DNA from: Candidatus Eremiobacteria bacterium
GTDB taxonomy: Bacteria > Vulcanimicrobiota > Vulcanimicrobiia > Vulcanimicrobiales > Vulcanimicrobiaceae
NCBI GenBank assembly: GCA_963737065.1
Contig: CAVTRC010000001.1
Span: 1,248,001 to 1,312,000 of the forward strand
Direction: 5' to 3'
DNA: 64,000 bases
The stretch's first letter is position 1. Each line of letters opens with the position of its first letter. The translations under genes were made by a program, and so were the position numbers. The notes beneath the pieces were generated by a model, which did not search any database, was not told where the DNA came from, and saw only the letters and a program-made list of their open reading frames with translations. Shown in pieces: positions 34,643 to 44,311 of this stretch.

Positions 34643-35431
34643 GTGGCACTACGGCTCGATCCGCGCAGCGGGACCAACGTTGGAGATTCATCGCAAAGCG
34701 ATGAACCGGCGTGGGATCAGAAGGAGATGCCGTTCACGGAGCACCTGCGGGAGCTCCGTACGCGTTTATTGGTTTCGCTCGGAACCGTCGGCGCAATCGC
34801 CGTCTTGCTCTTCTGGCCGTCGAAGTTTGCGATCCAATGGATGCAAGCGCAGTATCTGCACGGCACGCCGCTCAACGCGTTCGGCCTGGCCGACGTCTTG
34901 TTCACCGAGTTCAAGTTCTCCGTAATCGGCGGCGTCGTGATCGGTTTGCCGATGCTCTTCTACCAGGCGTGGATGTTCGTCGTACCGGCGATTCATCCGC
35001 GGACGCGGCGGATGGTCTACTCCTTCATCGTGCCGTCGATGCTCCTCGCGTTTGGAGGCCTTGCGTTTGCGCACTTCATCGTGATCCCGCGCGTGGTCAA
35101 TGCACTGATCAACATGACGAAAGAGATCGCGACGCCGACGTTCGGCGTCGGTCAAACGCTCGGATTTATTCTGATTCTTTTCGGCCTTTTCGCACTGATC
35201 TTCCAACTGCCCATCGTGCTGGTCGGACTTGCCCGTTTAGGAATCGTTAATGGACGTTGGCTATCGAAGTACCGTCGCCATGCGCTCTTCGCGATGGTTG
35301 TAGCAGGCGGTATCGCCGCGCCGGACGGCAATCCGATCACGATGGCGCTGCTCGCGCTTCCGATGTACGTGCTTTACGAAATCTCTATCTGGATCATTCT
35401 CTTCTTTGAACGCTCGTGGCAACAAAAGTAA
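34643..35431 (+). CDS. tatC: Twin-arginine translocase TatC
   Basis: 'MPFTEHLRELRTRL', 'YQAWMFVVP', 'FQLP', 'APDG...PMYVLYEISI'. Confidence 0.95.
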   Translation: MALRLDPRSGTNVGDSSQSDEPAWDQKEMPFTEHLRELRTRLLVSLGTVGAIAVLLFWPSKFAIQWMQAQYLHGTPLNAFGLADVLFTEFKFSVIGGVVIGLPMLFYQAWMFVVPAIHPRTRRMVYSFIVPSMLLAFGGLAFAHFIVIPRVVNALINMTKEIATPTFGVGQTLGFILILFGLFALIFQLPIVLVGLARLGIVNGRWLSKYRRHALFAMVVAGGIAAPDGNPITMALLALPMYVLYEISIWIILFFERSWQQK

Positions 35432-36802
35432 TCGCGCTCTACGATGACTTCACCCGCACGTTCGGCAACGTGCTCTTTGCCGTATTGCTGTTCGTCGTTT
35501 GGGGCATTCTCACGTTGATCGGTGTGATCGTCGATCAAGGCAAAGATCCGACCACGTACTTCAATACGTATCCGGCGGCACTCGCTCGCGCGATTTTACG
35601 CCTCGGTTTTGATAACATCTACCACTCGCCATGGTACGTGGGGATCGTCGGACTCATCCTGATTTCGCTCGCCGTCTGCACGTTCAAACGCGTCATTCCC
35701 GCGCGGTTGCCGCCGTTGCGCCCCGTGAAGATCGACAAGATTCCGCTCAACGGATCAATCGTGGTTCGTGGCGACGAGACGAACGTACGCGCCCGCGTCG
35801 AGTCGTTCTTTCGTTCGCGCGGCTGGAACGTACGCAAGCGCGAATTCGGCGGAACGGAGTGGAGTTTTGCCGACAAGCACAACTGGGCACGGCGCGGAGT
35901 TTTGATTGCGCACCTCGGATTCACGATTATCGCGGCCGGCACGACGGTCTACTGGGCGCGCGGATTCTCCGGCGAAGCCGCCGTCGTTACCGGCGAAACC
36001 GTGCGCATTGCGAAGACGAATGCGATTCTCACCCTTAACTCGTTCCGCTATAAGATCACGCCGATTCTCACAAAGAGCGGCATGGTCTATCAGCCGACCG
36101 ACTACGTTTCGAACGTCACGGTCACGGGACGTGACGGCGTGCCGAAGCACATGGTAGTGCGCGTCAATCACCCGATCGACGTCGACGGCACGTTGTACTA
36201 TCAGGCGAGTTACGGCTTTGCGATGACGATGCGCTTCACGCACGAGGGCGTCAACGTTCCGTCGCTCTCGGACCACGTGTTCAAAGAAGGCGACGCATTC
36301 AACATTCCGGGCACGCGCAACACGTTGCTCTACGACCGCTTCGTGCCAACGGTCGACAAGCAGAGCGGCATGCCTGCCGCCGATCCGCGCGTGAACGATC
36401 CCGCGGTTATTCTGAGCGTCCAGCAGAGCGGCGAAACGGCCGGCTCGGCGCTCGTCCCCCTGCACACCTCGATCGATCTGGGCAACGGCTGGCGCGTCAC
36501 GCCGGAGCGCTACATCTTGTATAGCGGGTTTCAGTACCGGTACGACCCCGGTATCCCGCTTGGTCGGAATCGGTGCGCTCGTCTTGCTCGCCGGACTTAT
36601 TACGTCGTTCTACTTCCTGCCCGCGCGTCTCTACGTCCGCGTCGACCCCTCGGGAGCCGGTTGTACCGTTGGCGTAGCTGCGACGACCGTGAAGGGGTAC
36701 GATATTTTCGCAGGACAGTTCCAAGCGCTTCTGCACGACTTGCAGAATACGATGGAGCCGCCCGGGACCAATCCTCACTTGCAAGCAGCGGAGGCCTACT
36801 GA
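35416..36802 (+). CDS. resB: Cytochrome c biogenesis protein ResB/Ccs1, +1 frameshift near 36560
   Basis: 'IYHSPWY', 'IAHLG', 'VNHPIDVDG..YYQASY', 'RYDPG' followed by TM 'VGIGALVLLAGLITSFY' in the next frame. Confidence 0.88.
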
Positions 36803-36806
36803 CGAA

Positions 36807-37814
36807 GTGACCGGACATTTGCAAGCCGACGAACTGCTCATGATCGTCGCGATCGCAAGTTACGTGGTAGGCGGTATCGCGCTGCTTATCTATTTCTTCT
36901 CGCGCGAAGCGTGGTTACGTAATCTCGGCGCGCCGCTCGCGATCGTCGGATGCGTCGCGCAATTTGCGCAGCTGGTCGTGCGCTTCGAACTCACCGGCAT
37001 TTGGCCGCTGCTCAATCTCTACGGGTCGCTTTCGCTCTTCGCGGCGATGTCGGTCGCGATCTTCATCGGTTTTGCCATCCGCTACAAGCTGTGGTTCGCC
37101 GGCGGATTCGTGCTTGCAATCGCGGCGATCTTTCTTGCGTACGGGGTGACGTGGAATGAAGGCACGATGCCGCCCGTTCCGTCACTGCAGTCGTACTGGG
37201 CGAAAATTCACGTGCCGATCGTCGTGTCGTCGTACGCGGCGTTTCTCGTCGCCTTCGTCTTCTCGTGCATATATTTGATCAAGTACTACGCCGAACAGAA
37301 GATCGGTGAGAAGAGCGTTATCGCCTCCGCAGTATCCGATATCGGAAATATTGCGGTACGCACGACGTTCCAGTATCAGGCAGCCGCTGCTGCCGTTCGG
37401 GATGCCGGACTCGCGCGTGCCACCGCGCTATCGGGCGCCACGCCGCAAGTCGCCGCTGCGGCCGCCGCCGGAAACCCGCTCGCGCAATGGCTCGAAACAT
37501 TGCCGTCGCTCGCGCAACTCGACGTCATTGTGTATCGCGCGGTCGCAATCGGTCTGCCCTTGATCTCGCTCGGGATCATCACCGGCGCGGCGTGGGCAAA
37601 AGAAGCGTGGGGCGCGTATTGGCAGTGGGATCCAAAAGAAACCGCCGCTCTCTGTACGTGGATCATCTATCTCGCGTACATGCATCTGCACACGCGCAAC
37701 GCATGGCGCGGATTACGCACGAATTGGGTGAGCGTCGGCGGATTCGTGCTCGTGATCTTCACCTACCTCGGCGTCAACATCTGGATAAGCGGTTTGCACA
37801 GTTACAAAATGTAG
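36807..37814 (+). CDS. ccsA: Cytochrome c biogenesis heme lyase CcsA/ResC
   Basis: 'LQSYWAKIHV', WWD domain 'WAKEAWGAYWQWDPKET', 'GLHSY'. Confidence 0.95.
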   Translation: MTGHLQADELLMIVAIASYVVGGIALLIYFFSREAWLRNLGAPLAIVGCVAQFAQLVVRFELTGIWPLLNLYGSLSLFAAMSVAIFIGFAIRYKLWFAGGFVLAIAAIFLAYGVTWNEGTMPPVPSLQSYWAKIHVPIVVSSYAAFLVAFVFSCIYLIKYYAEQKIGEKSVIASAVSDIGNIAVRTTFQYQAAAAAVRDAGLARATALSGATPQVAAAAAAGNPLAQWLETLPSLAQLDVIVYRAVAIGLPLISLGIITGAAWAKEAWGAYWQWDPKETAALCTWIIYLAYMHLHTRNAWRGLRTNWVSVGGFVLVIFTYLGVNIWISGLHSYKM

Positions 37815-38235
37815 CGCCCGGCTGCGTCTCGGTGCTGGATGACAACGGCTGGGGCTTTGGCTGACGCACCACGTTACGTTCCTCGGTGACGGCGGCGGCA
37901 AGATCGGGGCGTCAACGCCGCCAGTTGATAAGTTGCAACGCCGCGCTGATGAAATGCGTCTGCCGTTATGAGCCTGAGGCCGCGTGGCAGAATCAGCGTT
38001 GGGCCTTTCGTTGTGAGCGGCGCATTGACGGGACACGCGGTGTGCAAGCGCGAGGAGAGCCACGCACGATGAGGATGCTGATGCGGTCGGGACCGTTCGA
38101 ACACGAAAACGCTCGAGATTCCCAATGTATATTTCATAGTCTCAGGTCGCCAAATGTAGACACTTCTTTTAAGGTGCCTACTGGAGTTGACCCGCTTCCG
38201 TGGAGACTTTCAATCTTACAGAGAAAGGTCTCCAT

Positions 38236-38547
38236 ATGGCAAAGCGCCCCACCTATCCGCCGGAATTCCGGCATAGGATCCTCGAGCTGGTCGGTTCCGG
38301 CCGCAGCGTGAACTCCGTCGCGGTCGAATTTCAAGTTGCTCGACAATCGATCGTGAACTGGCTGAAGCAAGACGACGTTGATACGGGCCGCCGCGACGGC
38401 GGTTTAACAACGGACGAACGCAAAGAACTTGCGGCACTGCGCCGTGAAAATAAGCGCTTAAAACTCGAAGCGGAAATCCTGTCAAAAGCCGCGGCCTGGT
38501 TCGCTCGGGAAACGCACGCGGTTCCGAGCAAATCTTCGGATTCATAA
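38236..38547 (+). CDS. IS3 transposase OrfA (HTH + leucine zipper)
   Basis: 'YPPEFR...SVAVEFQV...NWLKQ...LRRENKRLKLEAEILSKAAAWFA'. Confidence 0.93.
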   Translation: MAKRPTYPPEFRHRILELVGSGRSVNSVAVEFQVARQSIVNWLKQDDVDTGRRDGGLTTDERKELAALRRENKRLKLEAEILSKAAAWFARETHAVPSKSSDS

Positions 38548-38934
38548 AGGCGTACCAGGCCAACTATACGATTACGATGCTGTGTCATGTGCTCGACGTT
38601 TCCCCGAGCGGATACTACGCGTGGTGCAACCGATCGCCGTCGAAGCGCCGCCAAGACGACATCGTTCTCGGCGATCAGATCGATGCGTTCTATCGGAAGT
38701 CGTATGGTATTTACGGCCGTCCGCGCTTGCATGCGGATCTTCGCGAAGCCGGCATTCGGATCTCCGGAAAGCGCCTTGCGCGGTTGATGCGCGAACGCGG
38801 AATTGTCGGCGTTTCTCGGAGGAAATCCACAGTCACGACCATACGCGATCGGGATTCGCGTCCGGCGCCTGATCTCGTTGAGCGCAATTTCCAAGCCGAT
38901 GGGCCTGACCAGCTTTGGGTCGCTGACATTACGT
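38544..38934 (+). pseudogene. IS3 OrfB, 5' part (ends ...QLWVADIT)
   Basis: 'LCHVLDVSPSGYYAW', 'YGRPRLHADL', 'APDLVERNF...PDQLWVADIT'; start uncertain (ATA overlapping the orfA stop, or frameshift fusion). Confidence 0.9.
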
Positions 38935-38948
38935 TGTATCTTGGACCG

Positions 38949-39130
38949 ACGCGGCGAACAACCGTCGCGAGGTGGGGATAGCACGGATATTACGTGAGGC
39001 AGCAACAGCCTGAGATGTAGATGTCGCACCCCACTGCATTTTCAGCGCCGCAGGAGATCGGACGATAGCAAAGACGTTGCTCATCGAGCGAAGAGTCTGG
39101 ATTTACAAGGCTGATCCGCGGGTGGCGCGA
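38949..39130 (+). ncRNA. Predicted IS110 bridge RNA (5' hairpin + target-binding loop + donor-binding loop)
   Basis: Manual pairing gives three stem-loop modules; guides GATATTACGT and GATGTAG match the target, GACGATAGC and TACAAG match the circle junction; ends approximate. Confidence 0.85.
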
Positions 39131-39155
39131 TTTCGATTTGAAATGTGGAGGCGCT

Positions 39156-40139
39156 GTGAAATTCATCGGGATTGATGTCTCTCGTGATAAGCTCGACTGC
39201 GCGGTAGTCGACGACTGTGGAACCGTTATTCAACGATCGCGAGCATTTAAGAATAGCGCTGATGGCGTCGATGCGCTCCTGAAGTGGGTCGGAAAAATCG
39301 CCAGTAAGGGGCACGCGCGGTTTGTCATCGAGGCAACGGCAGCCTATCACGAGATGGCCTCACTGCGCCTTGCGAAGACCGGTGAATTCGTCGCAATCGT
39401 GAACCCATTTCACGTGCGTTCTTTAGCGCGCGGGCTAGCCATGCTCAGTAAGAGTGACGCGATTGATGCGCTCGTCCTTGCGCAATATGGGCGTCTTGCA
39501 AAGCTGCGCCGATGGGTACCGCCAGCTGCGCAGCTTGTTGATATTCAGGCTCTTTTGCTGCGGCTCGATGCGATTGAATCAGACCTCTTGCGTGAGCAGA
39601 ATCGTCGCGAGCAGGCTGCAGCCAGAGAATCCGCGACGCTTGTGATTGGCTCGATTGACGCGAGTATCAAATTCCTAAAGCGTCAGCGGAAAAGCATCGA
39701 ATTCGCGATCAGCAAATCGATTGAAACCGCTCCGGGTATCGCGGATGACGTCGAGCGCTTACGCTCGATCCCCGGCGTGGGCGAAAAGACAGCAAACCGC
39801 ATGGCGACCATGCTGCGTATGCACGACTTTAAGTCGGCGCGTGAAGTGGCCGCCTTCTGCGGCCTCGTTCCGGTCGAGCATAAATCCGGAACGAGCGTCT
39901 ATCGCAAGCCGCGACTCTCGAAGGCCGGCAACCCAAGAATGCGGGCGGCTCTATACATGGTTGCAGTCGTCGCCATGCGGTTGAACCCCGACGTCAAGGC
40001 GCTTTACGATCGACTCGTAGGACGCGGTAAAGCAAAAATGGCGGCTCTCGGTGCGTGCATGCGTAAGATCGTTCAGATATGTTTCGGCGTACTGAAGTCG
40101 GGAAAAACGTACGCCCCGCAGGCTGTTGTTAGAGCTTGA
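39156..40139 (+). CDS. IS110-family DEDD recombinase/transposase (327 aa, intact)
   Basis: RuvC-like DEDD 'IGIDVS', 'VIEAT', 'KSDAIDA'; 'SIPGVG'; 'GLVPVEHKSGTS' serine loop; 'SKAGNPRMRAALY'; GGAGG RBS before GTG. Confidence 0.96.
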   Translation: MKFIGIDVSRDKLDCAVVDDCGTVIQRSRAFKNSADGVDALLKWVGKIASKGHARFVIEATAAYHEMASLRLAKTGEFVAIVNPFHVRSLARGLAMLSKSDAIDALVLAQYGRLAKLRRWVPPAAQLVDIQALLLRLDAIESDLLREQNRREQAAARESATLVIGSIDASIKFLKRQRKSIEFAISKSIETAPGIADDVERLRSIPGVGEKTANRMATMLRMHDFKSAREVAAFCGLVPVEHKSGTSVYRKPRLSKAGNPRMRAALYMVAVVAMRLNPDVKALYDRLVGRGKAKMAALGACMRKIVQICFGVLKSGKTYAPQAVVRA

Positions 40140-40156
40140 CTTCCCAGACGATATCT

Positions 40157-40614
40157 ATATCCCGACCTGGGGTGGATTCGTATACCTCGCAATTGTGCTC
40201 GATGCTTACAGTCGTCGAGTCGTCGGCTGGGCACCTGCTAATCACTTACGCACCGAACTTGTTCTGCAAGCGCTCAACTCAGCAATCTATCGGCGACGGC
40301 CGGAAAACGTTATCCATCACTCGGATCAAGGCTGCCAATACACCTCAATCGCCTTCGGCCTGCGGTGTCGCGAAGCCAAGGTACGCCCGTCGATGGGTTC
40401 AGTCGGTGATGCATACGATAACGCGATGTGCGAGAGTTTCAACGCAACGCTCGAATGCGAACTACTTGCGCGAAGTTCGTTCAAAAGCCAGCGTGAAGCT
40501 GAACAAGCGATCTTCGCGTATATCGAGGGTTTCTACAACCCGCATCGCCGGCATTCCGCAATCGGGTATCTCTCACCGAACAACTTCGAGCGCCGCATGA
40601 GTCATGCCGCTTGA
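40157..40614 (+). pseudogene. IS3 OrfB, 3' part (YIPTW...)
   Basis: 'YLAIVLDAYSRRVVGW', 'HHSDQGCQYTS', 'DNAMCESFNATLECE', 'FYNPHRRHSAIGYLSP'. Confidence 0.93.
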
Positions 40615-40720
40615 TGTCCAAGTCGCATTTCTCCGCGAAAGCGGGTCAACTCCAGTGGGCATCGGGCGGCGTTGTTGGTCAGCAAACCAATTACACCAAC
40701 GAAGGGGCGCTAGTTAAGGG

Positions 40721-41299
40721 ATGTTAGTTCTCGTTTTTCCGTTTATTCTCGCAACGCAACTACTTGCGCAAGCTACTCCAGAACCGTGGGCACATTACGA
40801 ATTGGCAGGAAGCTCCCTTAGGCAATTCGCTGCCAGCTATGACGCAGAAGTGCGCGGCAAGGAATCGCAATTTGCTGGTACAATCGTCCGCATCTCTAAA
40901 CTTGTTGACGGCGGAAGTCAGGTGACATTCGAGCGAAAAACCGGACAGCCAATGGGCTTTCGAGTTACGCCGGATAATAAGGTCGTTGCTGCATCTGCGT
41001 TGCAAGAATCAAATACAGAAGGCGTCCCGTTTGCGGACGCCCGCGCTATGGCGATCACCTACGACGCCTGGAAGGCGGGTCAAGTTAAAATTCCAGAGTC
41101 GGCCGCTGCGTTCAACGCAGATCGGTTCAGCGTCAGCGAACGCGGAATATTCAATTATCCCACGGGCTTGCCCGGATACTACGTAACATTCCAGCCCATC
41201 GGCAACGTCCCAAAAGTGGGGCGGGGGTGTCCTCCAACCCGAAACTATCGAGTCGATCCGAACACGTGGCAGGTGACCGAAGAACCAATTATTTGCTAA
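40721..41299 (+). CDS. Secreted hypothetical protein
   Basis: Signal-peptide-like N-terminus, 192 aa, visibly more AT-rich than core genes, two C-terminal Cys. Confidence 0.7.
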   Translation: MLVLVFPFILATQLLAQATPEPWAHYELAGSSLRQFAASYDAEVRGKESQFAGTIVRISKLVDGGSQVTFERKTGQPMGFRVTPDNKVVAASALQESNTEGVPFADARAMAITYDAWKAGQVKIPESAAAFNADRFSVSERGIFNYPTGLPGYYVTFQPIGNVPKVGRGCPPTRNYRVDPNTWQVTEEPIIC

Positions 41300-42083
41300 G
41301 CATCCGTGCCGCGCCAAGAACGCTGCTCGCGGATTCGCTTCGCGCTCGCACTATTTTATCGGCGCATCCGCCCGCAAAAACGCTGCGCAAGATATTGGCG
41401 AACAGCAAGCGATGTCGCCGTCTACGGAAGAACGCGGCGAATCCGGTTTCGCTTTTTCATTGATCTGCGTATGAGAGGGACGGCGTCAACGTCTGGAAGC
41501 GATTCGCACACGATGCGGAACGCGCGTCGGCGAAACCACATTTCGGTGTTGAAGCCTACGTGATCGAGAAGCAGAAACCGCCCAAATTCGACGTCGCGCT
41601 CAGGGCAGACTCCGTGTAGGCCGGTATCGCACGTGGATGCCGTCCAACCGCGAAAACACGTCAGCGCGGACCCTTGCCAACGGAAGAAGCACGGTAGAGG
41701 CGAACGGAAAGCTGTGCCGCCGAAAACGTCGTAGCGTAGTGGTTTTGCATAATGAACGGCTTCGCCTCGCCCTGCGCAAGGACGTCGACGCCGAACGCGG
41801 GCGAACGACCGAGTCCCGGGCAGTCGATCGGTCGTGGGCGCGGTCGTGCTGAACATGATCAACGACTGCGCGGAACGCGCTTTACCGACGAGAGGCCGAC
41901 AGACAGTGCCCCCGACACTCACGCGCTTGGTCGCGCGACCTACGTGACGCGCAATCCGGACAACCCCCGGCTGCAAAGTCGGCACTCGCCGCGTGCGCGT
42001 GACTTTCTTTGTAGCGCCCAGCAGACGGCGACCGTACAATGCGTGGTAAAAGGTCGAAGTTCACCCATCGGAGAGTGCGAGTT

Positions 42084-42761
42084 TTGTCGAAAGAGGCTGC
42101 CGCGGGCCCACCAGGCGCCCAGCGTAAGATTTACAGTGCGTACGACGAGCCCGGAACAGCGCGAGAAATTAGCCGCCGTCAGTTCATGGCGAATGCGACG
42201 CTGGCCGTGGGCGGCCTCGTCGGCCTTGGTCTAGCGATTCCCATCATCGGATCGCTTATCCCGAAAGGAGGCAGCGGCACGGGAAATTGGGCGCCGCTCA
42301 ATCCCGATGAAGTCAAACAGTTGCAAGATGCGACGTCGAAACCGCTCAAGCTGACGTTCGCGCTGAAATCGAAAGATTCGTATCTGCCGGAGCAGTCCAC
42401 CGAAGAGTACGTGTGGGGCATCAAAGTCACCGATCCGGACAAGTTCAAATCAGCTCGCCCCGACCTCTTCAAGCACGGCGACAATACATTGCCGTACGAC
42501 GTCATCACGATGAGCTTTGTGATCTTCAGCCCGATCTGCCCGCACCTCGGATGCCGCCCGGTGTGGAATGGTGACGCTTCGCGATTCCAATGCCCGTGCC
42601 ACGGTTCGCAGTTCAACTTCGACGGCGAACATCTCGCCGGACCGGCGCCGCGCGGCATGGATCCCCTTCCGTTCAAGGAGCAAAGCGGCACGGCGGACGT
42701 GATGTGGATACGGTATCAATCCGGCGTTCCGGACCGCATCGTCATCTCGTATCAGTCGTAA
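42084..42761 (+). CDS. qcrA: Rieske iron-sulfur subunit of a quinol:cytochrome c reductase
   Basis: Tat motif 'ISRRQF', 'CPHLGC', 'CPCHGSQF', 'GPAPR'; start uncertain (42039 or 42084). Confidence 0.92.
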   Translation: MSKEAAAGPPGAQRKIYSAYDEPGTAREISRRQFMANATLAVGGLVGLGLAIPIIGSLIPKGGSGTGNWAPLNPDEVKQLQDATSKPLKLTFALKSKDSYLPEQSTEEYVWGIKVTDPDKFKSARPDLFKHGDNTLPYDVITMSFVIFSPICPHLGCRPVWNGDASRFQCPCHGSQFNFDGEHLAGPAPRGMDPLPFKEQSGTADVMWIRYQSGVPDRIVISYQS

Positions 42762-42778
42762 GGAAGGATCGCTCTCGA

Positions 42779-44311
42779 ATGCTCAATTGGATTGAAGCGC
42801 GTACCGGCTTCGTCTCGATGACGAAGGAGTTCCTTACGGAAGACGTTCCCGGCGGCGCGAGTTATTGGTATGTGTTCGGCAGCGCGACGCTCTTCGCGAT
42901 GATCGTGCAGATCGCGACCGGGATTTTTCTTACGTTCTTCTACGCACCATCGGCTGCGACCGCGTGGGAGTCGACGCGCGCGATCTATCTAAATCCGTAC
43001 ACGCACTTCTTGCTTTCGGTGCACTATTGGGGTGCATCGGCAATGATCGCACTCGTCTTCTTGCATCTGCTGCAAGTGTTGGTTTGGGGTGCGTACAAAT
43101 CGCCGCGCGAACTGCAGTGGATCGTCGGCGTCATACTGCTGGTCGTAACGCTCGTGCTCGGTTTGACCGGCTACTTGCTGCCGTGGGATATGGACGCGTA
43201 CTTCGCGTCGCAGGTTTCACTCAATATCGCCGGCCTTCCGCCCGGCGGCGGGATCTTGCAAAGCATCGCGCAGGGCGGCGGCACGATGGGCACCGATACG
43301 ATCAATCGTTTCTTCGGTCTACACGTATGGCTGATGCCGGCCGTGCTCGTTTTACTCGTCGGCGCCCATCTGGCGATTTTCCGCCACAACGGCTCGGCGG
43401 GACCGGTTGTCGACGATCCGCGCAAACTGCGTCCTGGGCGTTTCTGGCCGGATCAGATGTTCATGGACGCCGTCGCATCCTTCGTCGTCTTTTTGATCAT
43501 CATCGCGCTCTCGTTCGCTGCACCGCCCTTCCTCGACGCGAAAGCGGACCCGACGAACGCGGCGTTCGTGCCCTACCCGGCGTGGTATTTCTTGTTCCTC
43601 TTCGGACTGTTGAACTTCGTGCCGGTGTTGCTGCAGGGCAGCCACATTCCGTTCCTCGTTTCGCAAGCGAACGCGCCGTGGGTGGAACTCTTCGCCGCAA
43701 TCGTTGTGCCGACCATCGGCGGACTCGTCGTCCTGTTGCTCCCGTGGCTCGACCGCAGCACGGTGCGCTCGTTCCGCGCGCGCCCGGCCATCCTATGGAC
43801 GACGTTGGTCGTGATCGTCTGCATCGTCGCGCTTTCGTTCTACGCGCAAGCGACGATACAAGCGCACATTGCCGCATCCGGCATCACGCCGCAGACGGAA
43901 GCGCAAGTCCTCGCCGCGCCGGCTTCAAATGAAGGCGGCACGTCAAACGGCACCGGCGCAACGGTCGGCGCACCGGGCGGTTCGAGCGCTGCGAGCCCGC
44001 AGGTCGCTGCGGGACAACAAGTATTCTCGCAAAACTGCTCGACGTGTCACGGCGCAAACGGTCAAGGCCAACCCGGCGTCGCACCGCCGCTTTCCAAGAA
44101 TCCGTTCGTGACCGGTGATCCCAACGCCATCATCAACGTCGTGAAAAACGGACTGCACGGACAAACGGTGATGGGTCAAACGTATGGTGCACCGATGCCC
44201 GCGTGGAAGTCGTCGCTCTCGAAAAAGGACATCGCCAACGTCATCACGTTCATTCGCGGCGGCCTACCGGGCAACAGCGCAAGCGCGGTCAAGGAATCGG
44301 ACGTCAAATAA
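42779..44311 (+). CDS. qcrB: Cytochrome b (unsplit) fused to a C-terminal monoheme cytochrome c
   Basis: 'VHYWGAS...LHLL', 'TGYLLPWD', 'RFFGLHVW...AHL', 'PAWYF', C-terminal 'CSTCH...MPAW'. Confidence 0.92.
   Translation: MLNWIEARTGFVSMTKEFLTEDVPGGASYWYVFGSATLFAMIVQIATGIFLTFFYAPSAATAWESTRAIYLNPYTHFLLSVHYWGASAMIALVFLHLLQVLVWGAYKSPRELQWIVGVILLVVTLVLGLTGYLLPWDMDAYFASQVSLNIAGLPPGGGILQSIAQGGGTMGTDTINRFFGLHVWLMPAVLVLLVGAHLAIFRHNGSAGPVVDDPRKLRPGRFWPDQMFMDAVASFVVFLIIIALSFAAPPFLDAKADPTNAAFVPYPAWYFLFLFGLLNFVPVLLQGSHIPFLVSQANAPWVELFAAIVVPTIGGLVVLLLPWLDRSTVRSFRARPAILWTTLVVIVCIVALSFYAQATIQAHIAASGITPQTEAQVLAAPASNEGGTSNGTGATVGAPGGSSAASPQVAAGQQVFSQNCSTCHGANGQGQPGVAPPLSKNPFVTGDPNAIINVVKNGLHGQTVMGQTYGAPMPAWKSSLSKKDIANVITFIRGGLPGNSASAVKESDVK

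Follow-up and report, generated by a model that had tools for sequence, protein, structure and literature searches.

An IS110-family element inside an IS3 orfB, and a bridge-RNA lineage apparently aimed at the D-x-T-Y codons of DDE transposase genes

The window analyzed here is a stretch of 64,000 nucleotides from a Candidatus Eremiobacteria bacterium (contig CAVTRC010000001.1, positions 1,248,001 to 1,312,000), and positions given without a prefix refer to it. It contains an insertion sequence (IS) of the IS110 family that lies within orfB, the transposase gene, of an IS3-family element. The split falls within the codons of the motif D-I-T-Y-I, and the split site is matched by both target guides of the bridge RNA predicted from the left end of the IS110 element. 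We believe, with a probability of about 0.85, that the element belongs to an IS110 bridge-RNA lineage aimed at the D-x-T-Y codons of DDE transposases. The features of the locus are as follows.

38182..40654, plus strand: IS3-family host element; its limits are the points where two genomic copies cease to match
38236..38547, plus strand: orfA of the IS3 element, with HTH_Tnp_1 (Pfam)
38577..38934, plus strand: 5′ part of IS3 orfB, with HTH_21, ending in ..L-W-V-A-D-I-T and the first base of the Tyr codon
38925..38934, plus strand: left target half, GACATTAC and the core GT (codons D-I-T and the T of Tyr)
38935..40156, plus strand: IS110-family element, 1222 bp, which starts with TGTATCTTGG and finishes with ..AGACGATATCT; the end motifs are conserved in relatives
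38951..38967, plus strand: predicted 5′ stem-loop of the bridge RNA, from the RNAalifold consensus with compensatory changes and from the single-sequence fold
38969..39037, plus strand: predicted target-binding loop, with outer stem GAGGTGGGG/CCCCAC.. and inner hairpin at 38997-39011
38986-38995, plus strand: left target guide GATATTACGT, within the target-binding loop
39014-39020, plus strand: right target guide GATGTAG, whose final AG faces the core
39039..39127, plus strand: predicted donor-binding loop, with an outer stem and an inner hairpin at 39072-39098
39061-39069, plus strand: left donor guide GACGATAGC, which matches the right end ..GACGATATCT
39105-39109, plus strand: right donor guide ACAAG, complementary to the core CT and the left-end TGT
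39156..40139, plus strand: IS110-family recombinase gene, GTG start, 327 aa, with the ribosome-binding site GGAGG at 39148-39152
40135..40140, plus strand: candidate -35 box TTGACT of the right end; in a circle with abutted ends, TATCTT (38937-38942) would follow 17 nt downstream
40157..40614, plus strand: right target half (ATATCC..) and 3′ part of IS3 orfB, with the catalytic core (rve, rve_3, rve_2)

The recombinase carries the two domains of its family, PF01548 (DEDD_Tnp_IS110) in the N-terminal part (80.7 bits) and PF02371 (Transposase_20) in the C-terminal part (89.5 bits). It scores 199 bits against the NCBIfam model NF033542, "IS110 family RNA-guided transposase", for which the cut-off is 140, and a 327-aa record is present in the protein collection. 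The residues D3, E55, D97, D100 and S240, numbered from G-I-D-V-S, are invariant in an alignment (A3) of 10 proteins of the clade described below; in a 7-protein alignment (A1) that includes two N-terminally truncated rows, only D97, D100 and S240 are invariant. The element has no terminal inverted repeats and no target duplication, and a non-coding left end of 221 nt lies upstream of the start codon of the recombinase. We collected relatives of the recombinase from species-representative genomes (12 loci) and from metagenome contigs (50 loci), and nearly all of them share the left end TGTATCTTG and the right end AGACGGTATCT. Of 51 distinct right ends, 41 carry TTGAC 21 nt from the end (offset -21) and three more carry it at -22 (44/51), and TGTATCTT is nearly invariant in the alignment of left ends. 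By analogy with IS621, the abutted ends of a circle would rebuild a sigma-70 promoter (TTGACT, 17 nt, TATCTT).

The host element begins with the terminal inverted repeat TGGAGTTGACCCGC.. and ends with ..GCGGGTCAACTCCA, and its Pfam domains are HTH_Tnp_1, HTH_21 and rve. At the left junction, GCT GAC ATT ACG T ends at 38934 and TGTATCTTGG follows from 38935; at the right junction, ..GACGATATCT ends at 40156 and is followed by ATATCCCGACCTGG (AT ATC CCG ACC TGG). When the two IS3 halves are joined across the insertion, they read A-D-I-T-Y-I-P-T-W in frame, with no bases duplicated. As it stands, the 5′ frame of orfB reads into the left end of the IS110 element and meets a stop at 38981. The 3′ part scores 185.5 bits with the NCBIfam model transpos_IS3, in a match that begins at profile position 226 of 369. 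The IS3 copy in the window has no evident target-site duplication of its own (CTAC.. / GTG..), and the other copy of this IS3 in the genome has AAG on both sides.

The Asp of the IS3-family motif W-x-A-D-I-T-Y-I is the first residue of the catalytic DDE triad. An uninterrupted relative of the IS3 element, found in another genome of the same class (locus L089), has the contiguous codons GAC ATC ACC TAC GTG at this place. In its orfB, D144, D203 (in H-H-S-D-Q-G) and E239 have the D-D-35-E spacing, and rve begins at residue 135. A phmmer search of the intact orfB against the PDB pairs D203 with the second Asp of HIV-1 integrase and E239 with its Glu, and this alignment does not reach the first Asp. 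The identity of the first Asp is therefore drawn from the start of the rve domain and the D-D-35-E spacing, together with textbook knowledge. Because of the spacing of D144, D203 and E239 and of this alignment, we place the split in the window two codons after the first catalytic Asp, where the initial annotation, a reading of the sequence made before this analysis, had also placed it.

The left end of the IS110 element has the layout expected of a bridge RNA. The RNAalifold consensus of 38 distinct left ends contains 47 pairs, of which 33 have compensatory changes, and consists of a 5′ stem-loop and, after it, a pair of long stems, each with an internal loop around a small hairpin; the folding z-score of the RNA from the window is -2.4. 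Judged from sequence, this architecture is that described for IS621, and the RNA would be expressed from the left end. No Rfam covariance model matches at E <= 1 in 38000-40800. As read from the alignment, the family's left donor guide GACG[G/A]TAGC lies opposite GACG[G/A]TAT-CT of the right end, and a G-to-A change is shared by the window element and its sister L026 at both places. The minimum-free-energy fold of 38986-39027 pairs the left target guide with the right one. Around ACGT the target is in part a palindrome, and the guides of the free RNA may stay masked until the recombinase binds.

The split site is GACATTACGT|ATATC, and both target guides match it: the left target guide is complementary to the bottom strand of GACATTAC-GT, and the right target guide to the top strand of (x)T-ATATC. 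The initial annotation had observed that the guides spell an ideal 15-mer encoding D-I-T-Y-I and that the real site differs from it only at two third codon positions. This is the sequence as we find it (GAT/GAC and TAC/TAT), and both mismatches are in addition potential wobbles, of which the left guide would form rU:dG and the right guide rG:dT. Furthermore, the correspondence extends to the family, in which the 9-10 bases before the hairpin of the first loop equal the left flank and the bases after it equal the reverse complement of the core and the right flank. In the 34 family members with both flanks available, guides and their own flanks agree on average at 9.3 of 11 non-core positions and crossed pairs at 4.7, and the observed total was not attained in any of 10000 permutations. 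The agreement between guide and flank is therefore above chance.

The genome that contains the window has no intact site that matches the ideal 15-mer or its wobble-degenerate form. Only two other sites in it lie within two mismatches (<=2) of the ideal target; both are unoccupied and outside transposase genes, and at each of them the left guide meets a mismatch that is not a wobble. One lies in a protease-like open reading frame (ORF), where it encodes D-I-A-Y-I, and the other lies antisense to a transketolase-like ORF. A better-matching genomic repeat as the true target, which the initial annotation had named among the observations that would count against it, is ruled out, since none occurs in this genome. 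The other rve-type genes of the genome were considered as missed targets and rejected, as the IS21-like and IS481-like genes are without the 15-mer.

Two copies of the IS110 element occur in the genome, the second at G000:C1:66597-67816, and they are 100% identical over 1220 bp. Each lies inside a copy of the same IS3 element at the same site, D-I-T|Y-I, and distinct DNA is found beyond the ends of the IS3 elements. Between the two hosts there are three single substitutions and a 52-bp patch that holds 14 more, and the IS110 parts do not differ at all. This contrast (four events versus none) is suggestive of two separate insertions. It might be thought that a single ancient insertion occurred and that the IS3::IS110 composite was then copied and diverged as a unit, in which case the recurrence of the site would be no sign of targeting. 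Both genomic copies are indeed the same composite. However, a composite with a split orfB is unable to move by itself, and the identical IS110 copies lie in hosts that differ at 17 positions. The genome yielded no uninterrupted copy of this IS3 and no full-length one besides these two.

Several further observations concern these copies and their surroundings. The 52-bp mosaic patch lies in orfA (38292-38343) and looks like gene conversion from a third IS3 variant. The composite of the window is located between cytochrome c biogenesis-like genes (ResB/CcsA-like membrane proteins, 35416-37814) and a Rieske/cytochrome b/c-type cytochrome cluster (42039-44311), as judged from ORF translations. The second composite is in an IS-dense stretch (G000:C1:65848-72000), with an IS481-like gene approximately 850 nt downstream (C1:69178) and an IS21-like gene at C1:71376. 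A third, distant IS110-family gene with 34% identity occurs at G000:C1:2419550-2421650 (L020:379-2472); it has two TGA stops inside the genome-search match and three over the whole frame. It begins approximately 70 nt after the stop of an intact IS481-like transposase gene and may be another case of an IS110 element landing at or beside an IS.

A maximum-likelihood tree was constructed from 49 recombinases, with L008-L012, L027, L028, L068 and L072-L075 omitted as fragments or duplicates. Eleven of the 49 rows form one clade with support of 100/100 and a stem branch of 0.65, and within it the window element is sister to L026 (69% identity). All 11 insertion sites of the clade follow the pattern GAx xxx ACx T | Ax xTx, and in 10 of the 11 the insertion is in a DDE transposase gene, at D-x-T|Y. 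Of these genes, eight are assigned to the IS3 family by the right flank or by both flanks and one by the left flank only, and one belongs to the IS6 family. The sites and hosts, with families assigned by Pfam or NCBIfam, are as follows.

Window element: D-I-T|Y-I, IS3 family
L026 (also seen as L027 and L028): D-I-T|Y-I, IS3 family
L003: D-I-T|Y-I, IS3 family
L030: Y-I-A-T-D-E, right flank only, IS3 family
L004: D-F-T|Y-V, IS3 family
L005: D-M-T|, left flank only, IS3 family on the left
L029: D-I-T|Y-I, IS3 family
L031: D-I-T|Y-I, IS3 family
L032: D-I-T|Y-I, IS3 family
L007: Y-M-K-I-S-G-Q-W-K-stop-L-Y-R-A-V-D.., right flank only, IS6 family (PF13610, NF033587)
L034: D-Y-T|Y-V, an unrelated ORF with no Pfam or NCBIfam family

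All six IS3 right flanks scanned with NCBIfam begin at position 226 of 369 of the transpos_IS3 profile, and identity to the IS3 element of the window is 35-48% for the hosts of L003, L004 and L005. The second codon of the guide follows that of the host within the clade: ATT with ATT, ATC with ATC, TTC with TTC in the case of D-F-T, and ATG with ATG in the case of D-M-T. The remaining 38 rows have CCT-ended sites followed by AC.. or CC.., many of them palindromic and resembling repetitive extragenic palindromic (REP) sequences. The insertion in L007 should be at the homologous D-E-T|Y position of its IS6-family host, the left flank being missing. An in-frame TAG nine codons past its junction means that this host gene carries a second defect (L007:771-1214).

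The initial annotation had proposed that the guide is tuned to the catalytic motif of IS3 elements, to be supported by tabulating the flanks of copies and homologs. The flanks bear out the recurrence, both in the two genomic copies and across the clade. The restriction to IS3 elements holds in part: 10 of the 11 sites are in DDE transposase genes, but one of these belongs to the IS6 family, and the eleventh site is in an unrelated ORF.

The clade also bears on a single ancient insertion. The sister recombinases of the window and L026, and those of L003 and L030, are found in similar IS3 hosts, as common descent of a composite would predict. However, very close recombinases lie in unrelated hosts, L029 in an IS3 element and L034 in a non-IS ORF, and likewise L004 in an IS3 and L007 in an IS6 element. 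An insertion that happened once, long ago, and was passed on together with its host therefore fails to account for what is seen. Moreover, the hosts are 35-48% identical compared with 55-60% for the recombinases, and the site is independently predicted by the complementarity of guide and target. We regard a single insertion as very unlikely. A nested structure produced by mis-joined repeats in assembly or annotation is harder still to credit. Repeats in metagenome-assembled genomes (MAGs) are often mis-assembled, and L005 may be such a case. The genome of the window, however, consists of two contigs in which both composites have unique flanks beyond the IS3 ends, and the same junction is found in independent contigs from different collections.

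A more serious objection is that this is an ordinary IS110 element with an inherited guide that happens to match a frequent 15-mer, so that the hits in IS3 elements would reflect how common that 15-mer is, without selection for transposase genes. Mechanistically, this differs from the explanation that we prefer only in the word "selected". Recognition does appear to be purely by sequence. The ORF split in L034 reads ..F-G-K-P-D-Y-T|Y-V-P-A-L-K.. (L034:979-2827), and it is matched by the left guide at 9 of 10 positions and by the right guide at 7 of 8, with only core position 1 missed; since this is a natural look-alike site outside the family, recognition is by sequence alone. The near-matches in the protease-like ORF and the transketolase-like region point in the same direction. 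However, the guides covary with local host codons (TTC for D-F-T and ATG for D-M-T), and the target has been kept over recombinases at 55-70% identity while the other 38 relatives use quite different sites. Selection for the landing site predicts that the target persists, with tracking changes, at that depth, which counts against an ordinary inherited guide. We therefore consider it improbable, and favor a lineage aimed at the D-x-T-Y codons of DDE transposases.

Certain observations weigh against that preferred reading. L034 shows that a sequence is recognized and not "IS3" as such. L005 has an IS3 element on its left side only; its right flank (L005:2558-3207) is a C-terminal fragment of a histidine kinase (HATPase_c), and this could be a rearrangement, through recombination between two copies or an adjacent deletion, or a chimeric MAG contig. 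L007 and L030 are without a left flank. The window element and L026 are in visibly similar IS3 elements, so both could stem from a single insertion, and a single insertion, with the composite duplicated afterwards, could in principle account for the two copies in the genome of the window. Outside that genome, all loci are single copies on metagenome or MAG contigs, and the within-genome statistics have n=2. Finally, the base with which the clade's left guide faces the core is G or U, at odds with the C of the donor core and with many of the targets, and the IS621 data suggest that such a disagreement lowers efficiency (PMC11208160, in the part of that paper available to us).

The core itself is informative. 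It is CT in all members outside the clade whose guides are aligned in register, except for L011, in which the left-end call is off. Within the clade, the target cores are CT (ACC-T), GT (ACG-T) and AT (ACA-T), and the donor is always CT; at core position 1, the base is G or U in the left guide and G in the right. In all four cases with a non-CT target (the window element, L003, L004 and L034), the left junction retains the target base, G or A, and the right junction retains the donor C. By analogy with IS621, for which the reaction has been solved, this pattern fits cleavage and exchange of the top strand immediately 3′ of the core.

In the window element, each two-fold-degenerate third codon position is faced by an RNA base that is able to pair with both alternatives. 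The left guide has U at these positions (GAU-AUU) and would accept GAY and ATY through rU:dG, and the right guide has G (GAU-GUA) and would accept TAY and ATY through rG:dT. The four-fold-degenerate third position of the Thr codon is core position 1, which is read by G from both sides; if the guides act as a degenerate probe, ACG and ACA would be tolerated by the left guide, which reads the bottom strand, and ACC and ACT by the right guide, which reads the top strand. It is a tentative idea, and in our view more doubtful than not, that the bridge RNA works as such a probe of a protein motif and that this hyperparasitic IS110 lineage follows the first catalytic Asp motif by this means. If true, such a guide could track the motif over diverged IS3 elements, and even IS6 elements, that are unable to mutate away from it.

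The mechanism that we propose is as follows. In the clade, the target loop would have been retargeted from the CCT-ended, often palindromic sites of the family to 15 nt that encode D-x-T-Y-[IVM] in DDE transposases, and the donor loop would pair with the junction that the two ends of the element form, right end to left end (..GACGATAT-CT-TGT..). On the model of IS621, excision as a circle would rebuild the sigma-70 promoter and drive both the bridge RNA and the recombinase, and the RNA-protein complex would recombine the circle into any DNA bearing a matching 15-mer. The IS110 element has inserted precisely, without duplication, at the core xT between the Thr and Tyr codons of W-V-A-D-I-T-Y-I. 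Because catalysis fixes the motif at the protein level, the 15-mer recurs in many mobile elements. Insertion there would have no cost to the host, and the resident transposase would be cut ahead of its catalytic core. The initial annotation had spoken of a "host-harmless landing site" and of "disabling the IS3", and these are reasonable inferences, given that orfB is truncated ahead of the whole catalytic core. The reverse relationship also appears in our collection: in L008:1-260, the 3′ end of an IS3-family orfB, with its terminal sequence, stands in place of the 5′ part of an IS110 left end as far as the left target guide, and an IS3 element thus appears to have inserted into the bridge-RNA region of an IS110 element.

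The clade is rare. The protein collection holds approximately 45 clusters at >=53% identity, all generically named, and Paraburkholderia tropica and Comamonas sp. 4034 are among the sources of its records. The plasmid collection returned 1228 records at E <= 1e-40, of which the best is 43% identical, and it therefore contains no clade member. No relative was found among viral contigs scanned with the clade alignment, and no further clade member was found in 400 genomes of the order of L004 or in 400 genomes of the phylum of the window genome, with <=5 candidates scored per genome. Among 60 relatives of the window genome, none has a copy of the IS110 element and two hold relatives of the IS3 element.

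If the lineage is aimed as we believe, an RNA-guided mobile element can live on other mobile elements by way of codons that those elements cannot change. Such targeting may help to explain genomes that hold only dead IS3 copies. In addition, the clade provides natural data on the mismatches that bridge recombinases accept, such as wobbles of the G:U type and a first core base other than that of CT, which bears on off-target rules for genome editing.

Bridge-RNA systems that have already been described provide the framework for this interpretation. According to the available portions of the two IS621 papers (PMC11208160; PMC11208158), IS621 shares with the window element the DEDD RuvC-like and Tnp domains and a left-end RNA composed of a 5′ stem-loop and two internal loops. 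The spacing of its residues D11, E60, D102, D105 and S241 matches that of D3, E55, D97, D100 and S240, and their equivalence is drawn from this spacing. Likewise shared with the window family are a left target guide of nine bases (seven plus a two-base core) directed at the bottom strand, a short right target guide directed at the top strand from the core onward, the core CT, a mismatch at donor-guide position 7, and a -35 box, a candidate one in the window family, within the right end. IS621 is reported to tolerate a single natural mismatch, an rG:dT pair (Durrant et al., 2024, PMC11208160, in the same portions). Its targets are REP-like sites, and its likeness to the window element is drawn by description and not by direct sequence comparison. 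The clade differs from IS621 in that the core-facing base of the left guide is G or U instead of C, and in that CT, GT and AT cores are targeted while the donor stays CT.

In the IS1111 group, IS4321/IS5075 insert at the inverted repeats of the Tn21 family and ISKpn4/ISPst6 at attC sites (cited in PMC11187229 and PMC11208160, as far as the available text of these papers goes). Like the window element, they have a DEDD transposase and use other mobile DNA as a landing site. However, their non-coding region is downstream of the gene and they have subterminal inverted repeats, and their targets are non-coding ends or recombination sites, whereas the target of the window element is a coding catalytic motif.

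The closest precedent is ISEc21, an IS110-family element of E. coli that targets the second-D motif of IS3-family transposases (Siddiquee et al., 2024, Nat Commun, PMC11187229, in the text available to us). The initial annotation had named it as a possible precedent for the targeting of IS3 elements, correctly so, and its locus in NZ_LT903847.1 shows the insertion ..F-H-S-D | Q-G-S-Q-Y-T.. in an IS3-family gene. As the available text of PMC11187229 describes it, ISEc21 is like the window element in being of the IS110 type, with an upstream non-coding RNA (seekRNA/bridge RNA), a fixed orientation and no duplication, and in having as its natural target the conserved codons at a catalytic Asp of IS3-family transposase genes. 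The two differ in which Asp is targeted, the second in ISEc21 (H-S-D|Q-G-S-Q-Y) and the first in the window element (D-I-T|Y-I). The transposase of ISEc21, 358 aa long, shares 23% identity with the window recombinase (38.5 bits, E = 1e-7 pairwise), and because of this low identity we consider the two lineages separate and independent. In the literature that we covered, with ISfinder, subscription papers and the supplements of PMC11187229 (target tables for >300 IS) outside its scope, there is no report of an IS110 element that targets the first-D motif. What the window lineage adds beyond the case of ISEc21 is a habit seen over a clade of 11 loci, with covariation of guide and codon and one hit in the IS6 family. 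The concept of IS110 elements targeting IS3 elements is thus already known, and what is new is the independent lineage, the first-D motif, the clade-wide conservation with covariation, and the IS6-family hit. With a second, independently evolved case after ISEc21, the targeting of one IS by another looks like a recurrent strategy of bridge-RNA elements.

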